From Lytechinus pictus (Eukaryota): a DNA stretch of 64,000 bases. Each line of letters begins with the position of its first letter. The first letter of the stretch is position 1. Made by a program: the position numbers and the translations under genes. Shown here piece by piece: positions 2,675-63,895 of this stretch. Under the pieces are notes generated by a model that saw only the letters and a program-made list of their open reading frames with translations, did not search any database and was not told where the DNA came from. The DNA lies in NCBI RefSeq assembly GCF_037042905.1, contig NC_087251.1, positions 22,322,001 through 22,386,000 of the forward strand, given 5' to 3'.

Positions 2675-3261
2675 CCAGAAAAAACGAAACCGAGATTAGG
2701 CGATGATTTATCATAACTTAATCACAAATACAATAGACAAATGACCTACCATTGTAAAGCTTAGAATCTCCTCTTTCATCTGAAATTACTTAGATTATTT
2801 TTCATTCACGCATGAGTGAGCAAAAACAATTTGAAGAGGGGATACCAAAAAGTCATTTGGCGGGCTGTATCTGGGTTTCAAAAGGAAAACCACATTTTTA
2901 TAAAGTTCAATATCTGCTCTTTAATTTGATACCTCAATTACAGAAAATGGTCAAACATAACCTTTTTACTTCTTGACCATTTTTTGTGATTAAGGTATCA
3001 AATAAAAGAGCAGATATTGAACTTTTTAGGCATGTGATTTTCTTTTTGAAATTCAGATACCCCCCGCCAAATGAGTTTTTGGTATCCTTTCTTCAAATTG
3101 TTTTTGCTCACTCATGCGTGAATGAGGAATAATCTAAGTAATATCAGATGGAAGAGGATATTCTAAGCTTTACATTGGTAGGTAATTTGTTTATTGTATT
3201 TGTGATTAAGTTATGATAAATCATCGCCTAATTTCGGTTTCGTTTTTTCTGGGACGCACTG
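2675..3261. mobile_element. Tc1/mariner-type long-TIR MITE, internally deleted
   Basis: Foldback structure ending GGGACGCACTG|TA; same family as 42554-43358. Confidence 0.85.
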
Positions 3262-3380
3262 TATATCTCGTTAAACAGACAATGCGAGCACCAGGAACAA
3301 TGAAGACATAGGCCCTGAGCAAATTGTGTTTCATAAAGTTATGAAAAAATGTTTCTTATGTAATATAACATAACATAATT

Positions 3381-3533: not shown

Positions 3534-4183
3534 TAATTATCATTATAATTTATGAAAAATAATTTCTTCTTTCCCGCTACGTTTTTTTCCTCTCTCCCTC
3601 TTCTCCTTTTCCTCGTTTTTTGCCAGCCGATGGGGGGGGGGGGGGGGGGGGTGGGGGGTGGGCACGTGCCCCCCCCCCCGTATAGTTACGCCACTGAACC
3701 TAGACCATGTTGGGGGAGTCAATATCGAAATCTTAACCTAAGCTTAAGTTTTTGAAATGTCATCATAACTTAAAAAGTATATGGACCTAGTTCATGAAAC
3801 TTGGCCATAAGGGCAATCAAATATTACTTTACATCCTGCCTGAGTTTCAATTCACATGACCAAGGTCAAAGGTCATTTAGGGTCAATGAACATTGGCCAA
3901 GTTGGGCGTTTTTGTTGAACTACCATAATAACTGAATGTTTATGGATCTGATTCATTAAACTTGGTCATAAGCGTAATCAACTATCACTGAACATCCTGT
4001 GCGAGTTTCCGGTCACATGACGAAGGTTAAAGTTCATTAAGGTCTATTGCAGCCATTCTCAATTAATTTTGTTGAAGCGCCAAATTTCTTGTTGAGAATC
4101 TGGACTGCTCCACTATCAAACACGCGAAGAGCGAAATATTGTGGTATGGGGGGGGGGGATGCAGGACCACCTGAAGAGCTTAA

Positions 4184-5205: not shown

Positions 5206-5905
5206 AAAAGCACTGTTCACATATTATGTACATAGTCTTTGTACCAATCGTAAATGAATACATTAAATAGATCCTCCTTAATAGGGGTTATCGAATGCTA
5301 GATTACACAAAATCAGAGGAAATCAAATAGCAATTATATTTCAAAAAAGAGCGAGTGAGTTTTTATTTTACCTTTGTAATTAAATGATCAAACCTCAATT
5401 CCAGATTAATAGTAGATCAACCTTTTATTTTCTAATGCTTTTTCTTTTTCTATACCGGCTCCCACGCGCCACTCCGGAAGGCTCGGTGCGCCACAAGTGG
5501 CGCGCGCGCCACCATTTGAGAATCCCTGGTCTATTGACTTTGGCCATGTTGGAGGTAATTATTAAATTGCTGTCAAAACTTTCAAAGTTTATGGATACAG
5601 TTTATGAATTGTGGACATAAGGGTAATCAAGTATAACTGACAAGTCTTAGGTCACATGATCAAGGTCAAATGTCATTCGGCCGGGTCAATGAACGAAGTA
5701 TTGTATCATTATGAATGGTGTTTTTTGATGAATAATTATTTTATAGTCATTGTCACTGCTGCTATATTGAACCGCGTAATGCAGGTGAGACTACCAGAGT
5801 CGATCCACTTGTTTGTAAACTGCTCTTTGTAAATGTCACTGGAAGAATCAATAAGAGAATGCTTTGAAACAACAACAAACTAAATAACAAGTCATGTATG
5901 TCAAT

Positions 5906-7947
5906 GAAAGGTAGGAATATTGGTCACAATATTCGCTTGATTCTTGACATAATTGAATACACTGACATGAAAGATATTCCTGGGTCTATAGTAATGTTAG
6001 ATATTGAGAAAGCATTTGATAGTGTATCTCACAACTTTTTATTTCTTACATTGGAAAAGTTTAATTTCAGCAATTTTTTTATTGAGGCAGTTAAAACTTT
6101 ATATGCATCTCGCAATGCCTATGTTTTGAACAATGGTTTTCTAACTGAACGTGTCCCTATGGAACGAGGTATTTTTCAAGGTTGTCCGATTTCTCCATAT
6201 TTGTTTTTACTTGTGATAGAGATAATGGCAATATCAGTCCGACAAAACAATGCTATTAGAGGTATCCCACTTGAAAATGAAGATGTTAAAATATCTCTCT
6301 TTGCTGATGATTCTGTATGTTTTTTAAATGGTTCTGATGATTCTTTTTTGAGCTTTTTGAAACCTTGCAGAAATTTTTGTCGTTTTTCTGGTTGCAAAAT
6401 TAATTTTAGCAAAACTGAAGCAATATGGATAGGTTCTAAGAAGGGTAATCAACACTTCCCTTACATAAACCGTGGTGTTTCTTGGAAGGCTTCAAAATTT
6501 AAATGTTTAGGGGTAGTTTTATCTCAATTTATGAGTTAAATTATAAAGAGAAACTAAAAAGAATGGAGCAAACTTTAAACTGCTGGCGAACTAGAAATCT
6601 TTCTCTAATTGGTAGAATCTGTGTTGTCAAAACTCTTATTTTGCCACAGTTAATCTATCTTTTTTCTGTTCTTTCTGTTAAATTACCCAGAGCCTTCTTA
6701 AAAGAATTAAATAAATTATTTTTTAAATTTATTTGGAATGGAGGCAAGGATAGAGTTCAACGTAAGATAATGTGTAATCATTATACTCAGGCTGGACTTA
6801 GAATGATTGACCCTTTTTCTTTTGCATGTGCTCAAAAAATGGTATGGGTAAAACACTTATTGGATGAGAATTTTGATGCTCCATGGAAAAAGATTGAAGT
6901 AGCCTTTTTAGAAAAATTTAATCATAATATTCAAATTTTGTGGAAAACTCATGCTCCTGAGAGCATTTTAAACAGTCTTGGTAATATACAATTATCTGAA
7001 GCATTGAGAATGTGGTATTTATTTAGGGAGGAAGCTGCTGTCGAATTTTATGGTAACAAATTTTCAGACTTGAGTGGTTGTCAACTTCTGTGGTATAACA
7101 AATTCATTCGTTCAAAAACTAAACAGTATCTTGATTATCCAATGTGGCATGAGAGAAATGTCTTAATGATGTCAGACTTATTTAATCCCCCTCTTTTAGG
7201 TCACAAACTCTTTGAAGAGCTTGTGTTAGATTTTGGAATCCCCCGAACAGACAGAAGGAAATATAATTTTTTAATTAAGTGCATCCCGGAAGAATGGTTG
7301 GTGAGTTTTGACCCTGATATTATAGGTGTTCATGAAACAATTGTACATAAATTGTTGAGTTATAAAAAAGTCCCTAGAAATTCATACATTTTATTTAGGG
7401 GATCACACACACCTGACAAACGATACTCTTATTGGGATGAACATTTACCAATACCAGTATCTATCGATTGGGAAAAGGTACACCACACAATTTTTTTTGT
7501 ACCATTGATACTAAATTAAGATCATTCTATTTAAAGATTTTTCATAAAGCCATAGCATTAAATTATTTTTTATATAAGATTAAATCTAAGGACTCACCCA
7601 ATTATGTTTTCTGTGATAAAAGTGAGGAAACAATAGTCCACCTGTTTTGCGAATGTGAAAGGGTAATTCCTATTTGGCAATCCCTTTTAACGAAAATTTC
7701 CCAAAATAATGTTCAAATAAATGGTTCTAATTTTGAAAAAATGTTTGGACTCCCAGCTGATAAGTTCATTTCATACCTTTTCTTACTTTTGAAGTATTAT
7801 ATTCATACATGTAAATTTAAGAATAATCCTCCAAGTTATGCTCTTTTTAAGACATTTGTTAAAAAACAGCAGGACTTGGAATATTTGATAGCTAAGAAGA
7901 AAAAAAAGTTGCCCGCTCACTTTGAGAAGTGGCGATTCACCTTATAA
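5906..7947 (+). pseudogene. L1 ORF2 C-terminal part (RT and zinc finger), two frameshifts
   Basis: ORFs 5898-6539, 6503-7519 and 7468-7947 are colinear with ORF2 of the second L1. Confidence 0.92.
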
Positions 7948-22800: not shown

Positions 22801-25800
22801 ATAAAAGCACAATGATGGAGGTCCGGCGATAAGCCATCAGATAAAGTATTCACAATTTTGAAATTTTGACCCTGTGACGTCACATGCGAGCACCTACCCC
22901 ATATGTCTTAAATCTAATCGATTCCCATTTTTTATTGAGTAAAAACACTTTATACAATCTGGCTTACCAGTTTACTCGCGTGCATTGTTTTAATAATTGA
23001 AATGTCTAAACTGAATATATAACATTTAATGGGATAGTCCACCCCAACAACAAGTTGATTTGAATAAAAAGAGATATTGTTGTCTACAGAACGCAGTAAG
23101 GTTCAAATGATAACTATTTCCTTTTAGGTTTTATTATATTTTTGCAGATTTGACAAGGAAAAAATTAATAAATTACTATAGCTTAAACGAAAATGGCAAT
23201 TGAAATTCTGGGAGGGGTCAATCCTTGTTTCGAAGTATAATGAGAAGAAAATGGAAATATGACTTCTTATAACAAAATACAAAAAAAAGCAAATAGTGAT
23301 ATTTAGTTTTGTGAAATTAAGCAAAGATTTTAGATACCATAACTGTCTTATTTTGCATCTGATTTTAGGTCAAGTCCACCTCAGAAAAATGTTGATTTGA
23401 ATCAATAGAGAAAAATTAGACAAACACAATGCTGAAAATTCCATCAAAATCGGATGTAAAATAAGAAAGTTATGACATTTCAAAGTTTCGTTTATTTTTA
23501 ACAAAATAGTTATATGAATGAGCCAGTTAGAGAGTCGATGATGCCACTCACCCACAATTTCTTTTGTTTTTTATTATTTGAATTATACAATATATCAATT
23601 TTTACGAATTTGATGATTAGGACCTACTTGCCTGAACCACAAAATGTTAAAATAATGGAATTCCATGTGTTCAGGGAGGAATGAAACTTAATTTCACATG
23701 ACAATGACGAGAAAATCAAAATATTTCATATAATAAAATACAAAAAAAAAATAGTGAGTGAGTGATGTCATCAGTTCCCTCATTTGCATACCGACCGAGA
23801 TGTGCATATAACTATTTTGTGAAATGAAGCGAAACTTTAAAATGTAATAACTTTCTTATTTTACATCCGATTTTGATGAATTTTTCAGTGTTATGCTTGT
23901 TGAATTTTTCTCTTTTTATTTAAATCAAGTTTTTGTTGGGGTGGACTTGTTTAACAGTGTGAAGTTTGGTTATTTTTCTCTAATTTAAATTAGATATTTG
24001 CTAGGGAGACTATTCCTTGAATATTTTCTGTTTGAAAAATTGAATACTGTTATAAGCATTGATTGTTTAAACATTTTTATCTCTTAGCAGTAATCGATCG
24101 GTTGTAGTAATTAGTTTCTGTGGAAATCTATACATGTTTTTTTATTTCTGTTTTACTTTGTTATGTTTCTGATGATAATTTGTATAGAAATCGATGTTGT
24201 ATGTGTCTGACATTTTGAAAAGAAATCCATACGTGTTATTAAATTTTGTTTACCGTGTAATTAACGGATGACAATTTTGCTTGGTTTTGTTTTACTGACT
24301 TGTCTGATGATTAATGCAAAAGCAAATAATTAATTTTCTGAGAATTCTGATGGATTAAAAAAAAATCAAATTATATGATTATAAGGGCGTTGTCGGCATA
24401 TGACGTCACCAAATGAGAACTTGATAGAACCATAATTTCGTTATTCTTATATGGATTTCGGCCAAAAGTTCTTTGGGATGTTTCCTTGGCTTTCGTTTAG
24501 GAAAGCAAACTTGACGTCATAGTGACATTTGGCTTTAACTCCCAATTACCCTTTATACTGTGTACTAAGAAATCGTTAATTTGTTCTTTGTAGATTACAG
24601 GAGGACATTCTCTTCATTTTATGACAGTAATGGTGATGGCTTTATCACGAGCGAAGAGTTGGGTGCTGCGATGGAACAATGTGGATGTGGATTTACTGAG
24701 GAGGAAATTAAAGAAATGGTAACAAAAGCCGATACGACCAGTAAGTCCATAACGAAGATTTATATCAGGAATCGCAAACTGAACAATGAGTGAAACTGTA
24801 ACTCTTCCAGACACCCCTTCACGATCATATGATTTTGACATGCATACTATGATTATCAGTGGCGTACCGTGGGTCACGGCATGGGGGGGGGGGGCACCAG
24901 CAAAAATTTCGAGTCACTTAGGGGCGCGCGAAGCGCGCTCAATTGCCAGGTATTACTGACCTAATAGAGACATTTTAAGGACATGCAGTGCCGTTAAAAG
25001 GATATGTATCTCACTGATTAAATAATGCGAGCGCGAAGCGCGAGCTGAAATCTTTTGATATTCAGACCTAAAAAGGGACATCATAAGCATATTTTTTTGT
25101 TTTCATGATACGTAACTGTCTAGCTAAACAAACAATGCGAGCGAGAAGTGCGAGCTGAAAATTTTGTATATATTGACCCCAAACAGGGACATTTTAAGGA
25201 CTATATTTTCGGAATCCATTAAGAGTATACATATCTCAGCATAGTCATCTAATGCTAGTGCCATCCTTTGCTGATTTTGTTAGAATTACATCTTAACACA
25301 TTTAGCACTTCAAGTTTTTGTAGTCATTGTAATCATGATTATCATACGCATCTCACTAATCAATTACTGCGAGCTGAAATTTTAGGAAATTCAGACCTGA
25401 TGAGGTGCATTCTAAGGCTTGTTTGTAGGAATTCACTAAGACCGTACGTATTTCACTAACCAAATGATGCGAGCGCGAAGCGCCAGCTGAATTCTTTGTA
25501 TATATTGACCCCAAACATGGATATTTTAAGGACTGTTTTTAAGGAATCCATTAAGAGTATCTCACAATAGTCATCTAATGCGAGTGCCAAGCACTTTCTG
25601 ATTTTGTTACAAACACATCTAAACACATGAAGCACTTTTTGTTGTCATAGTTATACGCATCTCACTATTCAAATACTGCGAGCGCGAAGCGCGAGCTGAA
25701 AATTTAGGAAATTCAGACCTGAAGAGGGGTAAAACCTACTTCTACTGTTCTGCTCTTTCCACAGCTGTGAACATTGCTGATTCAGCATCTACTGGATAAA

Positions 25801-28800
25801 GACAAACGGTACAAGAACCCATTTATGTTCACAGCTTTTGTGTTCAAACCTGCCTAGCTACCACCATGCCTACCGTATCCTGCCCAATTCCAGGCTGCGA
25901 CTACGCCACGCCGGATCTGGATGCCTCTATTGTTGCTGCCCTGCTCACGACCCACTCCACAATTCATGCCTCTGCTGGGACAGGGTCTGCTGCCAAGATA
26001 GAGAAGGTCAAGAGGCCCACCATAGTTGCAGCCGGTACAAGCGAGGACTGGGCTTACTTCACTTCTCGATGGTCCGATTATGTGGAGAGTACCAAGATAC
26101 CAAGGACAAGGACAAGGACGTGCAACTCCTTGAATGCTGCGATGAGCCTCTTCGCAAGGACCTTACAAGATCCTCTGGCGTCAGCCTCACCACCAAGTCT
26201 GAAGCAGAGGTGCTGGCGGCAATCAAGAGGCTCGCTGTGCGTGAGGAAAATACCATGGTAGCTCGAGTGGCGCTACATAACATGCGCCAGGACCGGGATG
26301 AGACAGTCCGCAGCTTCGGGGCCCGCTTACGTGGTCAAGCAGGGATCTGTAAGTTCATCATTAAGTGCCCTGGTTGCTCTATGGATGTCAACTACACTGA
26401 TGAGATACTGCGGGATGCCCTGACCAGGGGAATCGCTGACCCCGAGATTCAGCTCGACCTCTTGGGGGACAAGAACCAGAAGATGTCTTCCAGTTCATCG
26501 AGGCGAAGGAGGCTGGCAAGCGTTCTGCTTCATCCCTCCTGCACTCTCACGTCGTAAACTCCGCTAGCAGCTCATATCGGAAAACCAAGCAAATGCACCT
26601 CAAGGATGGCCAAGACTTGTGTAACTACTGTGGCAAGAAGGGACATGGACGGGGTGCCCCTGCTCACGTCCGTAAGACACAATGTGATGCCTATGGACAC
26701 AAATGCAGGCACTGTGATAGATTCCACCACATGGAGAACGTATGCCGAAGCAGGGACAAACCAAAACGTCTCCCTCCGGTGACCCCTGAGGGACAGGAGA
26801 ATGCTCTATTTGACTCCTTTTGCTCTGTTCATGGCTATGATCACTCATGCGGAGGCCATGGCATTCCCCTTGATCATCACGTTTATGATAGCCTTAACCA
26901 AGCATGGATCAGAAGGAAGTCTTCCCCGCAACCCTTTGTAGATGTGACTGCTCTGGTTGTCCCTGATGACTACGAAGCTCTTGGATTTCGGCTCTCCTCC
27001 CCTACGATGCCTCAATCTACCCCTGCTATGGCTGACACTGGGTGCCAGAGCTGCTTGGCCGGCATGAAGATAGTTCGCCGCCTTGGATTACGTCAACGGG
27101 ACCTCATCCCTGTTAGTATGAAGATGCGGACTGCCACTAAAGGGGGCGTCAGGATTCTTGGGGCCATTCCATTGTGTCTGTCTGGCACGGGTGCTCAAGG
27201 CCGTACCGTCTGGACGAGACAGCTTACCTACGTCACAGACAGTTCTGATCAGCTCTTCCTCAGCCGGGAAGCCTGTGTTGGCCTTGGAATCATCTCAGAT
27301 AGTTTCCCACAACTGGGTGCGACACGAGACCCGCCCCTGTCGGACACGGCTGCAGTCCTTGAGGGGCCTCATACAAGACGTGCCTGCCACTGCCCTCAAC
27401 GTAGATTGCCCCCACCGCCTCCCACCTCACTACCTTTCCCGGCAACTGAGGACAACCGTGCCAAGCTCCAGCAGTACCTCCTTGATTATTACAAGAGTAG
27501 TACGTTCAACACTTGCGAACACCAACCACTGCCCCTGATGGATGGCCCTCCCATTAAACTGATGGTGGACCCCGATGCAGAGCCTATCGTACATCACACC
27601 CCCGTGCCTGTACCACTCCACTGGCGGGATGCAGTCAAGGCAGCATTAGATCACGATGTTCAGCTGGGTGTGCTTGAACCTGTACCTGTTGGTGAGCCTG
27701 TCACTTGGTGCCATAGGATGGTTGTGTGTGCCAAGAAGAATGGCAAACCGAGAAGGACTGTCGACTTCCAGGCCCTCAATGCTCATGCAACCCGCGAGAC
27801 ACACCACACTCAATCCCCTTTTCTCCAAGCGAGGTCAGTTCCACACGGCAAGAAGAAGACTGTCTGTGATGCTTGGAATGGCTACCACAGTGTACCCATC
27901 TGCCAGGAAGATCGCCATCTCACAACATTCATCACACCCTGGGGTAGATACCGCTACAAAACCGCGTCTCAGGGATACATCGCTTCTGGTGACGGCTACA
28001 CCAGGCGATACGACGAGATTGTATCAGCCATCCCATACAAGACAAAGTGTGTTGATGACGTCTTACTCTGGGCGGACACATTAGCTGACAGCTTCTTCCA
28101 AGCAGTCGAATGGCTAGACATCTGTGGTAGGAAAGGGATCATCCTCAACCCTACCAAATTCACACTTGGCGCAGATGTTGTCGAATTCGCAGGATTTGAA
28201 ATCACTACTGACAATGTCCGGCCATGCCAGAAATACCTGCAGGCGATCCTTGATTTTCCAGCACCGTCTAATATCACTGATGTGCGGTCATGGTTTGGGC
28301 TTGTCAACCAAGTATCGTATACCTTCAGCATGACAGAGAAGATGTTACCATTTCGTCAGCTCCTGAAGCCCAGTACGCCATTTGTGTGGACTACTGCCCT
28401 CCAGCGTGCCTTTGAAGACTCCAAGGCTGTTATTGCCGGCGAGATCGAAGATGGCGTGAGGATATTTGACCCCAGAAAGCCGACCTGCCTGGCAACGGAC
28501 TGGTCTAAGGATGGCATTGGCTTTTGGCTTCTGCAGAAACACTGCACCTGCGATGGCACTATCCCCTTCTGCTGTGTCACAGGTTGGAAGGTAACACTTG
28601 TAGGGAGTCGGTTTACTCATGCTGCTGAATCCCGCTACGCCCCAGTGGAAGGCGAGGCTCTAGCAGTAGCGGACGCCCTTGACAAGGCACGATACTTCGT
28701 CTTGGGATGCGAGGATCTCATCATTGCCGTGGACCACAAGCCACTACTCAAGATTTTCGGCGATAGGGCCTTGGAGGGGATCCCTAATCCCCGCTTGAGG

Positions 28801-31800
28801 AATCTAAAGGAGAAGACACTGCGGTACAAGTTCAGAATGTTCCATGTCCCTGGCGTCCATCACCGAGCTACAGATTGCCTCTCTCGCCACCCTACAGGCA
28901 AGGCAGAGAAATTACACCTCCCAGATGACGTAGCCATGGTTGGTGTCATGCGCCTGTCATTTCTGCACTCACCAACGCTAATGGGGGGCCTTCGGACCTC
29001 GGACCCTTACACTGATTCTGTTGAAGTCTGCACACTATCCTCTGCCATGTGTGCCTTGGACTCTATTCACCTCAAATCAGTTACATGGGATAGAGTACGT
29101 TCTGCGACAGCGAGTGATGACAACATGCAGACCCTCCTTGAACTCATCGAGTCTGGCTTGCCTGCCCATCGCCATGCATTTCCCCACCCACTGCGTGAAT
29201 ACTTCCAGTTTCGCGATGGACTTTCTTCGGTTGATGGAGTTATCCTCTTCAATGATCGTGTACTCATTCCTCCTTCCCTCCGGGATGAAATCTTGACCCA
29301 CCTGCATGCTGCTCACCAAGGGGTTACCTCGATGATTGCTCGTGCTGACGCTTCTGTCTTCTGGCCTGGCATCACCCCCGCGATCAGAGCCCTACGTGTA
29401 ACCGGATAGCCCCATCCAATCCCAGTGCACCGCCGGCTCCCCTAATCTCGCCGGCCTTCCCCTTTCAGTGTATCTGTGCAGACTATTTTCATTACAAAGG
29501 ATGCAACTATTTGGTCATAGTGGACAGGTACTCGAACTGGCCAATCGTCGAACGGTCTGCACAGGGGGCGAATGGACTCATCACATGTCTCCGTCGTGTC
29601 TTCGCTACCTTCGGTATTCCCGACGAGCTGGCTTCTGATGGTGGCCCTGAGTTCACAGCGGTAGCTTCGCGTTGTTTCCCTTCGGATTGGGGCATCCATC
29701 ATCGTCTTGCCTCTGTTGCATTTCCCCACAGCAACTGTCGAGCTGAGGTTGCTGTGAAGACCATCAAGCGCCTTATCATGAGCAACACGGGCACTACTGG
29801 TTCCCTTGATACGGATCACTTTCAACGGGCGATACTTCAGTATTGCAACACCCCAGACAGGGACACGAAGCTATCCCCAGCCATGTGTGTCTTTGGCCAC
29901 CCGATCCAGGACTTTATTCCTATTGCCCCTGGCAAATACAAGCCACACGACACCTGGTGCGAGACCCTACAGGCAAGGGAGGAGGCCCTTCGCAACCGTC
30001 ACATGAAGGGAGCAGAACGCTGGAAGGAACACACCAAACGGCTTCTTCCACTTGTTGTTGGCAACCACGTCCGCATTCAGAACCAAACAGGGCCGCATCC
30101 TCTGAAATGGGACAAGACCGGCGTGGTGATTGAAGTACGGCAGCATGACCAATACCTGGTCCGTGTTGATGGATCCGGCCGGATCACACTAAGGAATCGC
30201 AAGTTTCTACAGCATTACACTCCGGTCCATCGGCCCTTGCCACCGAGGACAGTGGAAGATGACCTTCGTACCCGGAGTTACCCGAACACCCCATCTGCCC
30301 CGTTGATCTTGACACCTACTGCTGTGTCTGGCGGACTACCATCACCATCCCCGTGTCCGGTTGTGCCCACTCCGTCTCCTCGACAGCAACCTGGGCCCAT
30401 CACCGACGCCTGTCCATCAACGGTGACTGATCAACCTGATGGCTCCCACCAACCAGACCCTGTTGATGTCTTGTCATCCCCGGCCGGCCGTGCTGCCCCA
30501 GCTGCAGTTCCTCGTGAAGCTTCCCCTTCCGTGGCTGATCGACCGCCTCCTCCTACTCCATCACCTGAGGATGACGGCATCGCTCCTGCTGCCACACCAG
30601 CTCCTTCGCCCAGGCGATCTCTCCGTCAGGCCGGTAGACCTGCATGGCACTCGGATTACGAGATGTCTCTCTAGCGTGCTATGACATCCTTTTTGTGTTC
30701 TTGGAGTTTCTGTTTTACGCGTTTTTGTTCCTGCTGGTGTTCGTGTTTGCAGTTATTTGGACGTTACATTTTGCTTTTCTTCTACTTTTTGGAGTTAACT
30801 GTTTGGAGGAGCCTTTCAAAATAGACATTGCTTTTTGGACAGGAATTTCATCTTTGCCACTGACTCGTTTTTTATCACTTTTCGTCGTACCAAAGGCTTG
30901 GGGGGAGATAGAGGATTCTAAAACCTACTTCTACTGTTCTGCTCTTTCCACAGCTGTGAACATTGCTGATTCAGCATCTACTGGATAAAGACAAACGGTA
31001 CAAGAACCCATTTAGTATTCTAAGGCTTGTTTGCAGGAATTCACTAAGACCGTACGTATTTCACTAACCAAATGATGCGAGAGCGATGCGCGAGCTGAAA
31101 ATTTTTTATATTGAGATAAGAAAAATTTACATTATAAGGACTGATTTTAGGGATTCATGAAGAGCAGACATCTCACTAAACTAATGAGAACGTTAGCACG
31201 GACATGAAATGTTTTACATTAAGACATTAAAATAGGGCAATCACTTTTAGTCAAGAAAAAGAAGCAAATGTCACTACACTGAAACAATAATAATTCGAAT
31301 TGCGAGGAAATATATTTGGTGTACAGTATATTGAATTGAAAACGGGAGGTTTTAGTACAACAGGATTATATATCTTGTTAAACAGTCTATGCGATCACCA
31401 GGAACAACAAAGACATAGGCCCGCTTGGATGGGGAAAATGGCAGCTTGTCGCAAGTGATGTGATTTGCGTCGAGAGCAGTTTTGAGCAGACCTGTACCAC
31501 CGGTGACGAATATAAGTGATAAGTAGACGGTAAAGTTGATTTATTTCGTCTTTTCTTGTTACGTCGTGTTTTTATTGTTACTATTCATACTCTATCAAAG
31601 ACGTTATCATGGATAATAACTCGCCCCTTCACAAGAAAATCAAGCGGAACACTGCACACGCAGACCTAGCGGTTCCTCTCCAAGGATCCCCCGATACTGC
31701 AGGCGCCGGCCATGGGCGTGAACCCCTAGCGAAGCGGGATATTCTCGCTCCATCTTCCAGCACTGCTGCGGAAGCCAATATAACGGCTGCCATTGACAAG

Positions 31801-34800
31801 CCCCCTCTATATGGTTCATCCAGTTTTTTGAGAATTTTGAGAAGAGACAAGATGCCCGCATTGAGTCAATTCTCGATAAGAAACTGCATCAACTTACTTC
31901 GAAGCTGTCTGAACAGGATGAGAAAATCAAATCCTTGAGTTGACTGTTCTTAATGATGCTGTTAAGTCCTTGGAGGTTCAAAATGGAAAGCTGGAGAGAA
32001 AATTGGATGACCTTGAAAATCGTTCAAGGAGAAACAATTTAGTAGTCTTCGGATTGAAAGAGTCCAACAACGAGGATTGTAAGAATGTGATCCATGATTT
32101 CCTACAGTTTGCAGAGGTGCCAGAGGAGGACATCAAAAATACCCAGCGATGCCACCGTACTCCATCATTTCGTTCCCAGTCAGAAAATGTGCAGCGTCCC
32201 AGGAGGATCCACATTGGCTTTGGCTCGTTTACTGCAAAGGAAAGAGCTCGCAAATGCTGCATGAAGATGCTGAAGGCATCAAAATCGCTCTACCAAGATC
32301 AGAAAGCCTTTGTAGCTGAAGACCTTTCACAGCATGTTCTACAACTGAGGAAAGCCATAGCTGGAGCATTCAAACGTCTGAAGGAAGAGGGCAAGAGCCC
32401 TTTTTTTGTCTTTCCTGACAAGTTATGCTACAAGTCTCCTAATGGGAAATTGATTACAACGTAACTTCGTTCTCTTCCACATGTATTAAATAACTTTCGT
32501 TGCATCTCTACTGTGTCTTCCCAATTGAGCCTGAGAGAGAGAGCGTACTGAACTTTTGATCAAGAGTTAAACAAAAAAATTACTTAGTGGGCTATTCGTA
32601 AAGTACGCAGTATTGTTGATATCCCTGAGCCAAGTTTTTAATTCAACACATTTAGCTTTTGGATATATTTTCAACAGATCAGGGGCAGCAATTGTGGATT
32701 ACATGATCATGACAAAAATAGCTGAACAAGGCTGTAATGTGTCTTTAAAATTGAAGTCTTATCTGTTTTGAAACTTTTGAGATGAGAATTTGTCCATTTT
32801 TAAACAGCATCTTTGAGATACAACAAGGTTTTTTGTGGGTTTAACGAGTTGATTTATGTTTTGCAAGAAATTGCAGTCATTCTTTTTTCTTTGTTATAAA
32901 AGTGCCACAATTTGTCTATGAGGCAGTTTTAGATACCGTAGTTTTAATCACATGGTGAGTTTTGCTCAAAGTTGCTCAAATTTGTTGTTGTTTTTTATAC
33001 TGCTAGCACCTAAGACCAGGGCTGTGTGTGATTTGAAGCCTTTGTTTGTTCCTGGTGCCTTGGTTTCCCATCACTACTTTACTTCCAATTGTTTGTTTAT
33101 TTGATGTTTTTTCTTTTGTATTTTCGATTCGTTTTTAATGTTATCCTGATGGTATTTTGTAACAGAGCAGTACATGTAAATGTGTATATTCAATCCTATG
33201 TTTCGTCTTGGGCAGATACATGTATGATGAGGTGTCTTGAACGATTATACTTCCATTTTCGTCTAATGTACGTATTTATTGATAATGCTTACCAAAGTGA
33301 TATTTTTCCTTTTGAACCATGTATGTAACCTTATCTACTTTCAATTGTCGTGGAATTCAGGACCTCATTAAAAGGAGAAAAATATTTCATTATTTACGCT
33401 CTATCGAAAGTGATATAATATTTCTCCAAGAAACACATTCATCACCTAATGATGAAAAGTTTTGGTCACAGCAATGGGGAGAACATTCTTGGTTTTCTAG
33501 TTTTTCTTCTAATAGTAGGGGGGTTGCAATTTTGATTCGCAAACATCTTGCTCCCACAATACATAACATATATAGTGACCCTAATGGGCGTTATTTGATT
33601 ATGTCTATTACCATACATGATATGTCTCTGATTCTTTGTAATATATATGCTCCTAATGAAGATGATCCAGATTTCTTTTTTTATGTATTTAGTAGAATTA
33701 ACCAATATCCCCATGCCCCTCTTATGGTTGCAGGAGACTTTAATGCAGTATTAGGTCCATTAGATTATCAAGGCAAAAAACAGAAACATTCCAATGTTAA
33801 AGCAAATGAAACTGTTAATTTCTTGTTGGACGAATATGATTTAATTGATATTTGGAGATATTTCCATCCAAATTTACGTCAATATACGAGACATCAAGAT
33901 AACCCGAAAGTGCTGTCCAGATTAGATTTTATACTTGTTTCTAATACCTTGGTTAACAACTGTATTTCTTCTAAAATATATCCAGGTATACAATCAGATC
34001 ATTCACCAGTACTGTTGAAATTTAAATATGCCCAACCCCCTAAAGGTCCTGGTTTTTTGGAAACTCAATTGTAGCTTTTTGTCTAGTGATCCAGATTTCA
34101 TTCAGGTAGTGAAACAAGGTATAAGTGACTTTAAACTCGATCATCAAGAGTCAGAGTGCAATCCAAATATAATTTGGGATGCCTTAAAATGCAAAATAAC
34201 TGGGATAGGTATGGAATATGGTGCAAGAAAGAAGAAAGAAAGGAAAAGGGAGAAAATTGATTTATTGAAAGAGATTGATTCAACTCAAATGCAATTAAAC
34301 CAGCACCCTCTGAATAATGATCTCATTGAAAAATTGAGTCAGCTTAATAATAAGCTCAATAGGTTACTTGACAATGAAACAAAAGGTTTGATTATTCGTT
34401 CGCGATCTCGTTGGATAGAAGAAGGCGAAAAAAGTAGCAAGTATTTTTGCAACCTAGAGAAGAGATATGCAGAAAAGAAATCAATATATCGAATTAAAAA
34501 TGACCAAGATCAAACAATTTCTAATCAGGATGGTGTTTTGGATGAAATTCATAAATTTTATCAAAACTTGTACAGAAAACAAAATACCCAACAAACTGAT
34601 ATTATTGAATTTTTAGATACAATTGAAATCCCCAAATTAGCTGAGAATGTCAAAACTTTTTTAGAACAACCAATTTCTAATGGGGAAGTTTATGAAACCA
34701 TAAAGTCAATGAAACGTAACAAATCTCCTGGTTTTGATGGATTGCCAATATAATTTTATATAACATTTTGGCCTGATATTTGTGACTTACTTTTAAATTC

Positions 34801-37800
34801 ATTTAATTATTCAATGGAGAGTGGCATGATGTCGAATTTTCAAAGAAATGGTATAATAACGTTGATTCCAAAGAAGGATAAAGATGTTAATTATTTGAAA
34901 AACTATAGACCAATTTCGCTTTTAACTGTTGACTACAAAATTTTTACCAAGACTCTTGCAAACCGCTTGAATTTTTTTTTAAACCCCTTAATTCACCAAG
35001 ATCAGTCTGGTTTTCTAAAAGGAAGAAATATTGGTTTTAATATTAGGTTGATTTTAGATTTGATTGAATATACTGAGGCAAATAATATCCCTAGAGCTAT
35101 TTTACTCCTTGATATACAGAAAGCATTTGACAGTGTAAACCACGACTTTTTGATAGAAGTTTTGAATCGCTTCAATATAGGAACAAAATTTATTAAGTGG
35201 GTAAAAACCATTTATTGCGAGAGGAAAAGTTATGTTATGAATAATGGATTTTCAACTAAGGTAATTAATATGGAAAGAGGCATATTCCAAGGGTGCCCAA
35301 TTTCCCCCTATCTTTTTTAACTTGTAATTGAAACAATGGCTTTAGCTGTGAGACAAAATGACATTATCAAAGGTATTCCAATCCAAAATGAAGAAGTGAA
35401 AATTTCATTGATGGCGGATGATTCAACTTGTTTTTTGGATGGTTCCTTGGAATCTTTTAATATTTTATTTCAAGTGCTTGATAAATTTGCTAGTAGTTCA
35501 GGGTGTAGGCTTAACTTATCTAAGTCAGAAGCTATCTGGATAGGAAGGAAAAAAGGTTGTCAAGATTTCCCATTTGCTGAAAGAGGTCTAACATGGAGAG
35601 ATAATTCTTTCAAAACATTGGGTATTCAATTCTCGTTGAATTTTAATTCACTGTATAGTCTTAACTATGTTCCTAAGCTGAGGCAGATAGAGAATATATT
35701 GAATTGTTGGTGCTCAAGAAATTTGTCTTTTGTTGGAAAAATCTGTGTTATTAAAACTTTATTAATGCCTCAGTTGCTGTATTTACTATCTGTTTTGTGT
35801 ATTAAAATTCCAAGCAAATTTTTTAAGGATCTAAATATTTTATTTTACAGATTTATTTGGAATGGAGGCCAGGACAGAGTAAAGAGGAAATATTTTTGTA
35901 ATGACTTTTCTGCCTGTGGGCTTAAAATGGTTGATCCCTATACATTTTCAATGGCTCAGAAAATGATTTGGGTAAAATTTTTGTTAAATGATAATTACAA
36001 TAGTGGATGGAAATTAATTGAAGTTTCCTTTTTAGACAAATTTAATGCAATGAGGGACATTTTGTGGAAGGCCCATGCACCTGAACAAATTTTGAATAAT
36101 TTAAATTGTTCCCTACTTGCAGACTCAATCCGGACCTGGTACTTGTTTAGAGATAAAGCATCCAGAAAAGAGTTTGGTTATGATTATTTGTATTTGGGTT
36201 ATTCACATTGTATTTGGTTTAATAGAAATGTCAGATCCAAATCTAAACAATTTTTCTTTTATGAAAATTGGTTTAATAAGGGCATAGTTTTTATAAGTGA
36301 TCTCTTTAATCCACCCCATCCAGGTTACAAGTTATTTGAAGAGTTAGTTCTCGACTTTGAAATTTCAGCAAAAGATAGAAGAAAATATAATTTTCTATTA
36401 CAAAATATTCCTGGTCCATGGTTAGATTGGCATAATAATCCAGATTTAGATATCCATTCCGAAGTTGTAGATAAATTATTAGAGAAAAGGAAAGTTAGCA
36501 GTTATGCATATTCGATATTTTTCGATCAATGTCTCCCAGATAATTGTATTTCCTTTTGGGAAAAGTCGTGCCCTTCTAACGACAAAGTAGACTGGGAGAA
36601 AATACATATGCTGAATTTTAAGAGTACTATTGATAGCCGCCTCAGATCATTTTATTTCAAGGTGTTTCATAAGACAATTGCCCTTAATGCATTTTTATTT
36701 AAAATCAAGAGAAAAGATTCCCCAAACTGTTCATTCTGTAAAAGAGACCCTGAAACAATTGTACATATATTTTGTGATTGTCCGGTGGTTAACCTTGTAT
36801 GGGATGATCTTTTATCTATAATAAACCAAAAACAACATTCGAATATTATCCTTTCCCCCTTTGTAAAGGTTTTTGGTATTCAAGGTGATAACTTTCTAAC
36901 ATTCATTTTCCTTGCTTTCAAATACTATGTTCACTTTTGTAAATTTAATAACAAAAACCCCAATATTGTGGAATTCAAAGCTCGTATCAAAGGTATTAAG
37001 GATATTGAATATGTTTTGGCGAAGAAAAATGGTAAATTACCTGTACATTTTAAAAAGTGGAGATTTGATATCTAATTTGTTTTATGTATCTGTCTCGACA
37101 AGTATATACCTACATGTACGTAAGTGCTGCTCTGTTTTTAATCATGTAAATAGCTTGTTGATTTGTTTGATTTGTACTGTGATTTATTTTTTGATCAATA
37201 AAGATTAAAAAAAAAAGACATAGGCCCTGAGCAAATAATGTTTCATAAAGTTATGAAAAAATGCTTCTTATGTAATATAACATAATGTAATATAACATTA
37301 TAATGAACAATAATTTTTTCTTTCCCCACTACCTTTCTCTTCCTTTCTCCCTCTTTTTTTCATTTTCCCCGTTTTTTTTGGGCCAGTCGATTTGGGGGGG
37401 GGGGGGGGGCTCGTGCCCCCCATGCCCCCCGTAGTTACGCCACTGATGATTATGATACAAAATATTGCTTGTTTCTGATTTTGCCTATCTAGTTGTATGA
37501 GATTGACATGTAGTTCACTATAAAAAAATATAAGAAAACGGATAAATATAAAGGAAATCTGATGTGTTAGACTACTTTCAAAATGACAAGTAGGTATTAC
37601 TCTTAATCTGCAGGGTTCGTCCTTAAGTGATGATCCCGGCAATTGAGGTGTTGATTTGACAATGAATGTCTACTCTTTATCACTGTGCATTGATCCATTA
37701 ATTTACATTTGATCTTTCATAAGCTTTAATTTGATACCAAACATAACATGGAAGAACAGCGGTATTTTATTAATACCGCTGAAATGGGCCATCCTCCATA

Positions 37801-41307: not shown

Positions 41308-41310
<3 letters not shown>

Positions 41311-42278
41311 TGCGTATCAAAAAAAAAGTTTACACTTGGAAAAAATCCTGTAAAATTATACATTTGTAATATCCTGAAGATTTTTCCACATTCTAACATT
41401 GGTTCAGATCCATTTAAGCAAATGACGATATAACTGTCGAAAAATATTTCCGCTTGAGTGAGCACCACTTAATTTTGAAAAGTTAGTGAAAAATGATTTG
41501 CGCAGAACTGTGAAATAGTTATGCGAATAAAAGTAGACCTTAATCATGAAGAACACGTGGAATTTAGCTGGTAAAACTGATTTGAAGATATCTTTTACCT
41601 TTTTTGACTTGTTTCCTTGCCCAAAACACTTTGAAGAGTGCATTTCGCCCCACCCCACTCCCCCACACACCGAGGCCATCGTGACGGTATTTGCTTTACA
41701 CTGAGCTGTTATTTACATGGAATGGCTTAAGCTTGATTTTCGTTTTGTTAATCATAGCCAAGTTTGGGAAATGTGTGGAGAAACAAGTATTTAATGGAAA
41801 ATGAAATGTAAACCCACTTTCAATGATAAAAACTTAGTGAAAAAATGCTGGAGATGTCTGATATAAACTTTTGTTCAGATTTAGTTATGTCCTCAGATCC
41901 AGCTGGCACAAAAAGGGTAAAGGTTGTGCTTAATAAGTGTTGAAATTTCAATTTGGGTGGCAAAATTGTTACAAATCCTTGAATGTATCCGTTTTATTTC
42001 AATTGACTAAAAGTACAAGAGAAATGTATGAGAAATGTTTCGCAGGGTAAGTTTGATTTTGCCCTTTCCCATTGACACAGCGTGAAAACGAGCATTTCTG
42101 CGCAAACAGATTTCTGCGAGCTTTACAAAATTGGACAGTGCTCACTCAAGTGTAACATTCTGACAAAACTTTTACTTTCATTGGATAGATGAGACCCAAA
42201 CCAAAGATTATATGTGAAAAAATTACCCACATGTTGCATATATTTTAATTCCCATGGCTTTTTCAAAGTGTAAACCTT
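41308..42278. mobile_element. Tc1/mariner-type non-autonomous element, right TIR truncated
   Basis: TA|CAGTGCGTATCAAAAAAAAAGTTTACACTT at left and AAGTGTAAAC at right. Confidence 0.72.
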
Positions 42279-42368
42279 CACCCGACAAAGGAAATTATAA
42301 TTGGTATGGTGTCGAAAATCTGTCTATCTGACGGTCAATCGTATCGGGGTCGCCCTAGCCACTAACCC

Positions 42369-42440
42369 GTCTCTGTGGTCTAGTGGTTAGGGCACCGGCG
42401 TTCAAAGCTGGGGGCCCGGGTTCGATTCCCGACAGAGACA
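42369..42440 (+). tRNA. tRNA-like cloverleaf with anticodon TCA (opal-suppressor-like; may be a repeat-borne pseudo-tRNA)
   Basis: Acceptor GTCTCTG/CAGAGAC, D stem GTCT/GGGC, anticodon stem CCGGC/GCTGG with loop GTTCAAA, variable region GGGC, T stem CCGGG/CCCGA with TTCGATT, discriminator A, then T6. Confidence 0.6.
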
Positions 42441-42553
42441 TTTTTTCGGCATCACCAATTTTTCCAAAGGGTAGATAGCTATGGGAACCTTGATTTAAGC
42501 TACGCCTACCATTGTTCTCTTCATCCATTTCTTTCACACAATATATATATATA

Positions 42554-43358
42554 CAGTGCGTCCCACAAAAAATGAAACCGAGATTTATCGATGATTTATG
42601 ATAACTTAATCACAAATACAATAGACAAATGACCTACCATTGTAAAGCTTAGAATCTCCTGTTTCATCTGAAATTACTTAGATTATTTGTCCTTCACGCA
42701 TGAGTGAGCAAAAACAATTTGAAGAGGGGATACCAAAAAGTCATTTGGCGGGCTGTATCTGGGTTTCAAAAAGAAAACCACACTTTTATAAATTTCAATA
42801 TGTGCTCTTTAATTTGATACCTCAATTACAGAAAATTGTCAAGAAATAACAAAGTTCTGGTTCTTTGAAATAAGGCTTGAATTTCAATAATTTCATAAAA
42901 TGAAGAGGTTTTACAGGCTAGCGTTCAAACTCACTCGACACTCAGTTTTGTTGACGATCAGCCATGCATTAAGTCTTTTGTTAACCATGCGACAGCTTCT
43001 GTGGGAAACCGGTGAAAACACGTTTATTTAATGAAATTATGGAAAAAAAGCATCGTTTCGAGGGATCATAACTTTTTTACTTCTTGACTATTTTTTGTGA
43101 TTAAGGTATCATTAAAAGAGCAGATATTGAACTTTTTAGGCATGTGATTTTCTTTTTGAAATTCAGATACCCCCCGCCAAATGAGTTTTTGGTATCCTTT
43201 CTTCAAATTGTTTTCGCTCATTCATGCGTGAATGAGGAATAATCTAGAAAGAGGAGATTCTAAGCTTTACATTGGTGGGTCATTTGCCTATTGTATTTGT
43301 GATTAAGTTATGATAAATCATCGCTTAATCTCGGTTTCGTTTTTTCTGGGACGCACTG
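42554..43358. mobile_element. Tc1/mariner-type long-TIR MITE
   Basis: TA|CAGTGCGTCCCA...TGGGACGCACTG|TA; roughly 280-bp inverted arms. Confidence 0.9.
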
Positions 43359-54587: not shown

Positions 54588-55551
54588 TTTTTGTCTCACC
54601 TGCATAGCAGAGTGAGACTATAGGCGCCGCTTTTCCGACGGCGGCGGCGGCGGCGACGGCGGCGTCAACACCAAATCTTAACCTGAGGTTAAGTTTTTGA
54701 AATGACAGCATAACTTAGAAAGTATATGGACCTAGTTCATGAAACTTGGCCATAAGGTTAATCAAGTATTACTGAACATCCTGCCTGAGTTTCATGTCAC
54801 ATGACCAAGGTCAAAGGTCATTTAGGGTCAATGAACTTAGACCATGTTGGGGGAATCAACATCAAAATCTTAACCTAAGGTTAAGTTTTTGAAATGTCAT
54901 CATAACTTAGAAAATATATGGACCTAGTTCATGAAACTTATACATAAGGTTAATCAAGTATCACTGAACATCCTGCATGAGTTTCATGTCACATGACCAA
55001 GGTCAAAGGTCATTTAGGGTCAATGAACTTTGGCCGAATTGGGGGTATCTGTTGAATTACCATCATAACTTTGAAAGTTTATGGATCTGATTCATGAAAC
55101 TTGGACATAATAGTAATCAAGTATTACTGAACATCCTGTGCAAGTTTCAGGTCACATGATCAAGGTCAAAGGTCATTTAGGGTCAATGAACTTTGGCCAA
55201 ATTGGGGTATTTGTTGAATTACAGCCATAAATTTGAAAGTGTGTTGGTCTAGTTCATAAAACTTGGACATAATAGTAATCAAGTATCACTGAACATCCTG
55301 TGCGAGTTTCAGGTCACATGATCAAGGTCAAAGGTCATGTAAGGTCAAAGAACTTTGGCCACGTTGGGGGTATTTGTTGAATTGCCATCATATCTCTATA
55401 AGTGTATTGGTCTAGTTCATAAAACGTGGAAATAAGAGTAACCAAGTATCACTGAACATCTTGTGCGAGTTATAGTAGTTTTCAAAATCAGCACTGCTGC
55501 TATATTGAATCGCGTGATGCAGGTGAGACGGCCAGAGGCATTCCACTTGTT
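54588..55551 (+). mobile_element. Helentron-associated (HINE/DINE-like) element with internal tandem repeats
   Basis: Subterminal IR GTCTCACCTGCA (54593) / TGCAGGTGAGAC (55518); 5' hairpin partner GTGAGAC; (GGC)n tract; repeat units of about 162-191 bp; T-rich ends. Fragments also at about 3697-4050 and 5530-5812. Confidence 0.8.
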
Positions 55552-59148: not shown

Positions 59149-59690
<542 letters not shown>

Positions 59691-62132: not shown

Positions 62133-63895
62133 TACCCCCATCTCACTAGATGGCGATTCCACTGCGATCGTCAAAAATCGACAAAGCGTGGTATAACGTA
62201 GCTTGATCGTGCCTTTATCTTTTCAATCTTCTCCGTCGTACCTTGATCTTTTCTGAAGCGGCAAGGATCGCCACCATCTTTTTGGTCGCCACAAAATTTG
62301 AACATGTTCAAAACTTACGTAGCGAGATCGCGGAGGTGCTAATACCCCCATCTCACTAGGAAGGCGATCGTGGAGACCATGGCGATCTGTGTAAATCCCG
62401 CAAATCGTAGCAGAATCTTCCTCGAATTCAATTTTTAGCCTGCGAGACGATTGCACTGCAACTTCTATGCGACCGACCTGCGCTGAAGGCGATGGTAATA
62501 CGCTGAAAGTACGACGATGCCACTTTCTTGCGACGATTCGAGGCAGATGTGATGCGCTGCTTCTGCGATCAAAGCGATCGTACAACGAGGCTCATACGCT
62601 AATTAGGACCTCGGTACGGTGGTGCTACGAATGAAGCGATTATGTTACGTTCATGATGGGCTCTTGAAACGATTTCAAGCAATCGGCATACTAATCGCGG
62701 CACATGACACATTTTTCAGTCGATTGCCAACCTCCGACCAACATGGATGTTCAGAATTTGGTTGGACTTATACATCTTGGCATTCTAAAAGAACATCAGT
62801 TAAAAGTTGAATGCGAGGACAGGAGAAGGAGGAGGCCAAAAAGATACAGGGTCCGATCCTGGCTGTCACCTAAGTCATAATATACAATATTTTTAAAATT
62901 TCATTCAAAAGATGTCGATGAGCCTAATAGTTAATATAAGGGATGCATCCAGAATTTCATAAAAGAGCATAAAAATCTTTGATATTCTGTTTATTTTTTT
63001 CCACAAAGTTTGTCACTCAAAAATATTTGGTAAATTCCTTTCAAATTTGCTGACAAGAAGTAGTCTACTGATGTGAGAGCACTCATAAAAAGGGAGGGGG
63101 AGGGGGGCACAATGCCAGAATCTCCCTAAAGATTGCCTTTCCCAATCAATACATTAGTGATCGAATCATTAACAAAATTTGATGTTGTCTACTGTCACTG
63201 TGGTTGGAGTTCAATTTATTTTCAAAACATAATCAATTTATTTATTTCTGCAGAGGTAACCCATTTCGTCATCAAGACATGTGAGCGTCTTTTTTTTCTC
63301 TTTCCAGCTGGCTCAGCAGTGAGATTTTCATCCTCCTCCTGTACCCCCTCCTCTTCCTCCTCTACCTCCTCCTCCTCTACCACCATGACCACCACATAAC
63401 CCCTTGATCTTCCTCTTCGACCGCCGGCCTAAGAGGGGTAGCTTGGGCAGCTTTCCCTTTTCTGGTCCTTTTTCTGGGAGGTATGTTTGAAAACGCCGTG
63501 GTATCGCCTCGTAATCTGTTGCAAATATGATAATCCGCCACCATCGGCACGGCGTTTTATAGCAGCGCGGACGGTTGTTGCGCAATCGCTGCCCAGTCAT
63601 CAGCGGCGCAGCAAAAGCGCAACGCGAACGCCTGTAGCGGGCTGAGAACGTGTGCCACATGCCACCCAAAGAAGGAAGCGTCGTGGTGGAAGCTGTGTGA
63701 AGCGTGTCGTAAGTTTTGAACATGTTCAAAATTTTGTGGCGACCATAAAGATGGTGGCGATCCTTGCCGCTTCAGAAAAGATCAAGGTACGACGGAAAAG
63801 ATTGAAAAGATCAAGGCACGATCAAGCTACGTTATACCACGCTTTGTCGATTTTTGACGATCGCAGTGGAATCGCCATCTAGTGAGATGGGGGTA
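62133..63895. mobile_element. Long-TIR DNA transposon derivative (Harbinger-like, tentative)
   Basis: About 185-bp inverted repeats (62133-62319 vs 63708-63895) starting TACCCCCATCTCACTAG; a second terminus at 62343. Confidence 0.8.

Follow-up and report, generated by a model that had tools for sequence, protein, structure and literature searches.

Does a well-folded tRNA-like sequence with a UCA (opal) anticodon belong to the decoding machinery of its host, or is it part of a mobile element? This question is raised by one locus in the 64-kb window, by which we mean the whole stretch of 64,000 nucleotides that was analysed. A first-pass annotation, made from the letters of the sequence, had described a UCA-anticodon cloverleaf followed by a T6 terminator at 42369-42446, and had proposed an opal-suppressor-like RNA that might be spread by a mobile element.

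A tRNA-like cloverleaf with a UCA anticodon

The cloverleaf and its terminator were confirmed by ARAGORN, by Rfam and by a parse of the individual arms. ARAGORN predicts a single tRNA in the window, at 42369-42440 on the forward strand, and labels it SeC(tca). The same segment matches Rfam family RF00005 with 54.4 bits, against a gathering threshold of 29 (E = 6.3e-9 for the whole window), which is the only gathering-level Rfam match in 64 kb and, by Rfam, the best match of its clan. Side matches to Plastid-ycf2, mascRNA and mir-885 are all below gathering and reflect the tRNA fold.

The module is 72 nt long and has a 7/5 fold. All seven acceptor pairs are Watson-Crick, the D stem has 4 bp (two of them G-U), the anticodon stem has 5 bp (one G-U), and the T stem is paired at four of five positions, with a mismatch at C42416:A42432. 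The anticodon loop (42400-42406) contains G32, U33, the TCA anticodon at 42402-42404, A37 and A38; the variable loop has 4 nt, and the discriminator is A42440 (A73). The A and B boxes are intact, and a run of six T nucleotides that resembles a Pol III terminator lies directly 3' of the cloverleaf, at 42441-42446. Only 3 of 200 shuffled sequences fold as stably (z = -2.79), and the minimum-free-energy structure retains the acceptor and anticodon stems only, not the full cloverleaf. Apart from G32 and the T-stem mismatch, which is private to this copy (see below), all the features expected in the sequence of an opal suppressor, namely a canonical cloverleaf, UCA, Pol III boxes and a terminator, are present.

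Isotype of the module and origin of its anticodon

The ARAGORN label raises the question of whether the module is a tRNA-Sec, which the first-pass annotation had denied. According to the available text of Santesmasses et al. 2017 (PMC5330540), the length of a eukaryotic tRNA-Sec is 90-101 nt. Its fold is 9/4, with 13 bp in the acceptor-plus-T helix and 6 bp in the D stem, the variable arm is long, and position 73 is G; by the same text, ARAGORN averages 20 tRNA-Sec calls per selenoprotein genome, most of them false. The arm parse of 42369-42440 shows no such feature: it has 72 nt, a 7/5 fold, a 12-bp acceptor-plus-T helix, a 4-bp D stem, a 4-nt variable loop and A73, and the denial was correct. 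What the module shares with tRNA-Sec as characterized in that text is the position of the UCA anticodon and the ARAGORN label.

The D and T arms had been said to resemble those of tRNA-Glu, and a motif search agrees with this: eight tRNAs share both the D-arm and the T-arm motifs of the module, six of them Glu and two Gly. Among the best gapped Glu matches is a tRNA-Glu(CTC) without encoded CCA, at positions 143-214 of L004, a 1.9-kb contig of a bacterial MAG (56 of 72 positions identical with gaps, 43 ungapped). Judged by its lack of an encoded CCA, this tRNA is probably eukaryotic and host DNA carried over into the bacterial bin. By eye, acceptor pairs 2-7 of the module equal pairs 1-6 of the L004 tRNA, save for one compensatory change; in the anticodon stem, the 5' strand found at 27-31 of L004 recurs at 28-32 of the module. 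If both stems slid by one base relative to tRNA-Glu, G32 would be the old stem base 31 and the TTC at 33-35 the displaced Glu(TTC) anticodon, with TCA left in the reading position. The module may thus be a register-shifted tRNA-Glu, as suggested by one foreign isoacceptor, the CTC of L004, which served as the comparison in place of host tRNAs. A CCA-encoding tRNA-Arg(CCG) on a metagenome contig (L001, 1489-1563) is identical to the module at 56 of 72 positions without gaps; it had been picked by an exact 25-mer, and we treat it as convergence.

The cloverleaf is part of a high-copy repeat

In assemblies of public sequencing runs, 20 of the 24 listed runs contain part of 42279-42545. Four of these (X1, X9, X12 and X13) were compared over 42130-42640, on the basis of contigs and not raw reads. 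X12 represents organism B, and X13 represents organism C, which has low depth, also carries the MITEs described below and is not counted as an independent species. That X9 is RNA is only a guess. X20, a marine metatranscriptome with a share of 0.10, lies outside the four-run comparison. The locus is composed of the following features:

41308 to 42275, no strand: MITE1, a non-autonomous element bounded by terminal inverted repeats and adjoining a TA run; about 20 nt are missing at its right terminus (repeat search; in 69 X1 contigs the absent terminus follows 42275)
42276 to 42368, forward strand: upstream part of the repeat, 5'-truncated, the family extending further 5'; polymorphic at 42340-42365 (loose ends before 42274 in X1, X12 and X13)
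42369 to 42440, forward strand: tRNA-like cloverleaf, 7/5 fold, with TCA at 42402-42404, G32, and private changes at 42390 and 42432 (ARAGORN, Rfam, arm parse, contig comparison)
42441 to 42446, forward strand: T6 run resembling a Pol III terminator; a second run, T5, at 42459-42463 (sequence)
42447 to 42544, forward strand: 3' part of the repeat, followed in other copies by a TA run or a short AT-rich extension (public-run contigs)
42542 to 42553, no strand: TA microsatellite, likely the target site (sequence)
42554 to 43358, no strand: MITE2, an intact palindromic element flanked by TA, with a related copy at about 2675-3269 (repeat search)

MITE1, which we take to be of Tc1/mariner type from its TA flank and CAGTG end, has a right arm that matches its left arm at 66% over 188 nt. 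This right arm stops where the repeat begins, in agreement with the truncation of a MITE that the first-pass annotation had described, and the two are joined at about five shared letters and one extra base. The insert itself had been placed at about 42279-42540. It is indeed a short repeat adjoining the TA run, but it starts at about 42276 and runs into TA at about 42542-42553, and the loose ends of contigs show that the family extends past both of its ends, so that it is only part of a longer element and does not stand alone.

The suspected spread by a mobile element is upheld by the high copy number of the repeat in the contigs of public runs. In X1, the contig depths over the module add up to about 9e5, versus about 38 for single contigs. 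This sum is not a copy number; it is of the same order as the depth on the two MITEs, and even division by 31 for unitig overlap leaves several hundred. In X12, the depth is about 1e5-4e5 over 42274-42553 and there is next to none on either MITE, so that the repeat is a unit independent of the MITEs and common to a second genome. The depth in X9 on the module and the 3' part is 3-7 times that on the MITEs, relative to X1, although contig depth cannot show an RNA level. There is no second copy of the repeat within the 64-kb window, nor any copy of the family in the metagenome contigs, viral contigs, prokaryote genomes and phages that were searched.

The contigs also reveal how copies end. Loose ends before 42274 occur in 41 contigs of X1, six of X12 and three of X13, and follow one common upstream consensus, which implies that the window copy is 5'-truncated. 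On the 3' side, behind 42544-42553, X12 contigs continue into TA runs (12 contigs) or into a short AT-rich extension (3 + 3 contigs, median 16-27 nt). Among the 15 joints listed of 27, one contig joins copies head-to-tail (42536 back to 42274/42287), and at least three joints, with one contig each, connect opposite strands. Nine polymorphic X1 sites are clustered at 42340-42365, in the 30 nt directly upstream of the module, which suggests that the family comprises several subfamilies with different Pol III start regions.

The window copy compared with its family

Since a free variation of anticodon and stems among copies had been named as the mark of an ordinary SINE or pseudo-tRNA, we compared the window copy with its family. 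It has five differences in 265 nt, a private divergence of about 2%. At 42342, 42390, 42432 and 42481, 97-100% of the family depth has another base; at 42308 this fraction is 70-99%, and about 30% of the X1 depth shares the base of the window. At 42390 and 42432, the other base accounts for 99.0-99.99% of the depth in X1, X9 and X12 and restores U13-A22 and the T-stem pair. The T-stem mismatch is therefore a private mutation of the window copy, as is the D-stem wobble from 42390, and in the family majority all stems of the cloverleaf are perfect. With two private differences in the 72 nt of the module and three in the 193 nt outside it (Fisher p = 0.62), the window copy is without sign of constraint.

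In the family as a whole, no variant of the anticodon loop (42400-42406) at 4% or more is listed in X1, X9, X12 or X13, and the free variation of the anticodon was thus not observed. The differences of X12 (8) and of X13 (19) all lie outside the loop, while 6 of 36 differences in X1 and 11 of 41 in X9 are beyond those listed. None of the six further differences of X1 involves C, so C35 is invariant in X1 at the 4% level. Sites in X1 that vary at 4% or more number 13 in the 193 flanking nt and none, among those listed, in the module (p = 0.023, or 0.12 if one unlisted site lies inside); between organisms B and A there are three differences in the flanks and none in the module (p = 0.56). These counts are a weak hint that source elements keep the tRNA fold, which speaks somewhat against a purely neutral relic. 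A fixed anticodon is also expected of a young family that was copied from few sources.

A probable non-autonomous retroelement of Penelope/Naiad type

We consider it probable that the sequence from 42276 to about 42545 belongs to a non-coding, non-autonomous retroelement that is present in high copy number and has an internal module derived from tRNA-Glu, and that the window copy is truncated at its 5' end. Most likely, this copy is selfish DNA rather than a functional suppressor tRNA. The 5' truncation, the end in a TA run, and the head-to-tail and inverted joints fit the pattern of Penelope/Naiad-type elements, not that of a SINE. In the available text of Craig et al. 2021 (PMC8557442), Naiad insertions are 5'-truncated, often form partial tandems with inverted copies, carry a 30-40 bp tail, prefer (TA)n and have no hammerheads, and non-autonomous Chlamys derivatives form head-to-tail runs. 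A 3' end in (TA)n together with 5' truncation is found in the window copy, and 12 X12 contigs have loose ends that run into TA. The repeat has in common with the Naiad clade, and with Chlamys derivatives such as MRC1, the (TA)n target and the 5' truncation, in single contigs the partial tandem or inverted joints, possibly the short tail, and, in the part of the unit present, the lack of a hammerhead. Unlike these elements, it is short and non-coding, and its internal tRNA module with T6 is not described in the available text of PMC8557442, where the one mention of a tRNA is of tRNA-Sec. A link between the module and the selenoproteins of Naiad was rejected, since these use an ordinary tRNA-Sec and SECIS, and the module is devoid of every Sec determinant. 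By analogy, the repeat fits a non-autonomous PLE or a retrozyme-type passenger, and its membership in such a group is putative.

Under the retroelement reading, the window copy could have arisen as follows. A Penelope-like (Naiad-type) reverse transcriptase and endonuclease would nick a (TA)n tract and prime on the AT-rich end of the element RNA. It would then copy back through the tRNA module and stop early, giving rise to the 5' truncation, and the 5' side would be joined at a short microhomology with the removal of about 20 bp of the MITE1 end. In source elements, the module would probably serve as an internal Pol III promoter or as an RNA fold. The UCA would be a by-product of remodelling, through the one-base slide of the Glu anticodon arm or through a point change, inherited by all copies and not used for decoding, and dispersed copies would decay without visible constraint.

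Since the copy contains 93 nt of repeat before the module and a further 100 nt behind T6, the template cannot have been a plain Pol III monomer, which leaves a Pol II transcript, a read-through product, a multimer or a circle as the options. Several points count against the retroelement reading. Pol III should stop at the T6 directly behind the module, before it reaches the 3' part. The tandem and inverted joints are each found in a single contig. An autonomous Penelope-like partner that shares the 3' end is a putative component. Finally, the module is preserved more faithfully than one might expect of a neutral relic. The tRNA fold may have a role in the life cycle of the element itself.

Alternative explanations

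A specific form of such a role would make the repeat resemble a retrozyme, with the tRNA fold in place of the hammerhead. RNase P and RNase Z would cut multimers transcribed from tandem copies into unit-length, possibly circular templates for a Penelope-like reverse transcriptase; the fold would be selected, and the anticodon would be irrelevant. We regard this as unlikely, but it accounts for several observations. With 93 nt upstream of an internal module, a simple Pol III transcript of one unit that begins with the tRNA cannot be the template, the re-registered acceptor stem is nonetheless fully paired (with the one compensatory pair relative to L004), and there are the hint of fewer variants in the module and the head-to-tail joint. 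Animal retrozymes consist of 150-450 bp tandem units (Cervera and de la Pena 2020, PMC7229834, available text) and a derivation from PLEs has been proposed for them (Li, Clavereau and Pollet 2026, bioRxiv 10.64898/2026.07.22.740005, available text). The repeat shares with these non-LTR retrozymes its small size (a few hundred bp), its lack of coding sequence, the tandem joints and a proposed mobilisation by PLEs, but it has a tRNA-like fold and no hammerhead in the 270 bp present, and circular forms of it are hypothetical. A search for type I hammerheads in 42270-42560, which covers the part of the unit present in the window copy, gave no match at E up to 10 and no core motif. Against the retrozyme-like mechanism, the conservation signal is weak and depends on differences beyond those listed, promoter use and youth of the family account for the same data, and T6 suits Pol III termination better than a role in processing only.

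Spread at the DNA level would need no RNA step: a satellite, or a foldback or MITE-like unit, would have picked up a tRNA gene and would multiply through recombination or DNA transposition. In our view, this is quite unlikely. The repeat does lie between two MITEs that also favour TA, and opposite-strand and head-to-tail joints do exist. However, no terminal inverted repeats of its own are listed for the window copy, one of its ends is in TA while the other is ragged, and organism B has the repeat without either MITE.

An ordinary tRNA-derived SINE, or a tailless retro-tRNA, with a chance change of the anticodon is very unlikely. As in tRNA-derived SINEs (SINE2), the A and B boxes are intact, the copy number is high and dispersed copies decay, and according to the available text of PMC8450103 young SINEs often retain tRNA scores; the same text gives a conflict between anticodon and tRNA body, together with shared flanks, as marks of repeats in tRNAscan-SE 2.0. 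The depth in X12 rises about 3-fold from the module onward, which could mean that many copies start at the module, but summed contig depth is unreliable for such steps. In a SINE the tRNA head would form the 5' end, whereas here family sequence continues upstream of the module, for 93 nt in the window copy and for more in the loose ends, and none of the 24 loose ends listed (737 further) lies at the 5' end of the tRNA. The module is thus internal, retains its acceptor stem and is directly followed by a terminator, unlike in SINE2. The 3' end of the copy merges with the TA run and has no match to the LINE copies of the window (BLAST), and the 5' end is truncated. The claim of the first-pass annotation that this is no ordinary SINE head is supported.

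The opal-suppressor-like function that had been proposed is not supported, in view of the two private stem changes, the atypical G32 and a body that looks like a register-shifted tRNA-Glu. That copies are transcribed by Pol III, processed, charged (presumably by TrpRS or ArgRS, which we take as candidates from C35, A73 and G1-C72 under identity rules) and read UGA is hardly credible: it would agree with the canonical size, the intact promoter boxes, the terminator in its usual place, U33 and A37, the perfect stems of the family majority and the lack of anticodon variants in X12 and X13, but the body matches no single isotype in register, G32 is atypical, the T-stem pair is broken in the window copy, and a very large number of strong copies would presumably interfere with termination.

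Relation to other tRNA-bearing elements and implications

Predictions of tRNAs and suppressor tRNAs are also inflated by Helenus/TRIMp3 (Kojima 2024, PMC10886601), another mobile element with a tRNA-like module in its interior. According to the available text of that paper, all tRNA-Sup-CTA predictions in Uromyces and Cronartium derive from Helenus, and the six phyla listed for it do not include echinoderms. Helenus has two LTRs, a PBS, a PPT and, in animals, a 4-bp TSD, none of which is evident in the single partial copy of the window. No second LTR-like repeat for the unit was found in the window, and the ragged 5' end and the TA end argue against Helenus.

Our search of the freely accessible literature, without Repbase, listed no paper on the repeat family or on a tRNA-bearing PLE derivative; the supplements of PMC8557442 and PMC10886601 may hold related consensus sequences. 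A small passenger of Penelope type that carries a well-folded tRNA module in its interior did not turn up in this search. It may extend the theme of small-RNA-gene capture, seen in SINEs and Helenus, to a third class of retroelements. For annotation, tRNA finders will call family copies tRNA-Sec or suppressor genes, and masking is advised. If the fold is a processing signal, the family would bear on the way in which retrozyme-like RNAs arise; if its RNA is charged, it would bear on the tolerance of animals to many potential UGA-reading genes. A more speculative idea, which we rate as improbable, is that a Penelope-mobilised element is cut at its tRNA fold by RNase P and RNase Z, and thereby releases much UCA-bearing tRNA-like RNA that the host must keep uncharged or that leaks UGA readthrough. 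The window copy itself adds little beyond the family.

Other features of the window

The window is repeat-rich, with about 36% GC and with Gypsy-like and LINE-like ORFs, and no host gene is evident near the cloverleaf. At 25730-31014 there is a Gypsy-like LTR element bounded by a pair of 96-nt direct repeats with 100% identity (25730-25825 and 30919-31014); its ORFs at 25781-30674 are, as we take them from their motifs, gag/pol-like. A LINE-like element at 31922-37075 has ORF1-like, endonuclease-like and RT-like frames that are interrupted by stops, and a second, partial LINE relative lies at 5868-7947 (66% over 1080 nt). A pair of 188-nt inverted repeats, 98% identical and 1.4 kb apart (62133-62319 and 63708-63895), possibly represents a young DNA transposon. 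Tandem arrays include a 537-nt (AAGA)n-type microsatellite at 59151-59687 and a 163/192-bp repeat at 54665-55471, which has a relative at about 3692-4044.

Within the cloverleaf region, four X9 contigs end, at 42367-42380, in letters that resemble the reverse complement of a common template-switch adapter. If so, they would point to a cDNA library and to an antisense RNA end or an RT stop inside the cloverleaf.
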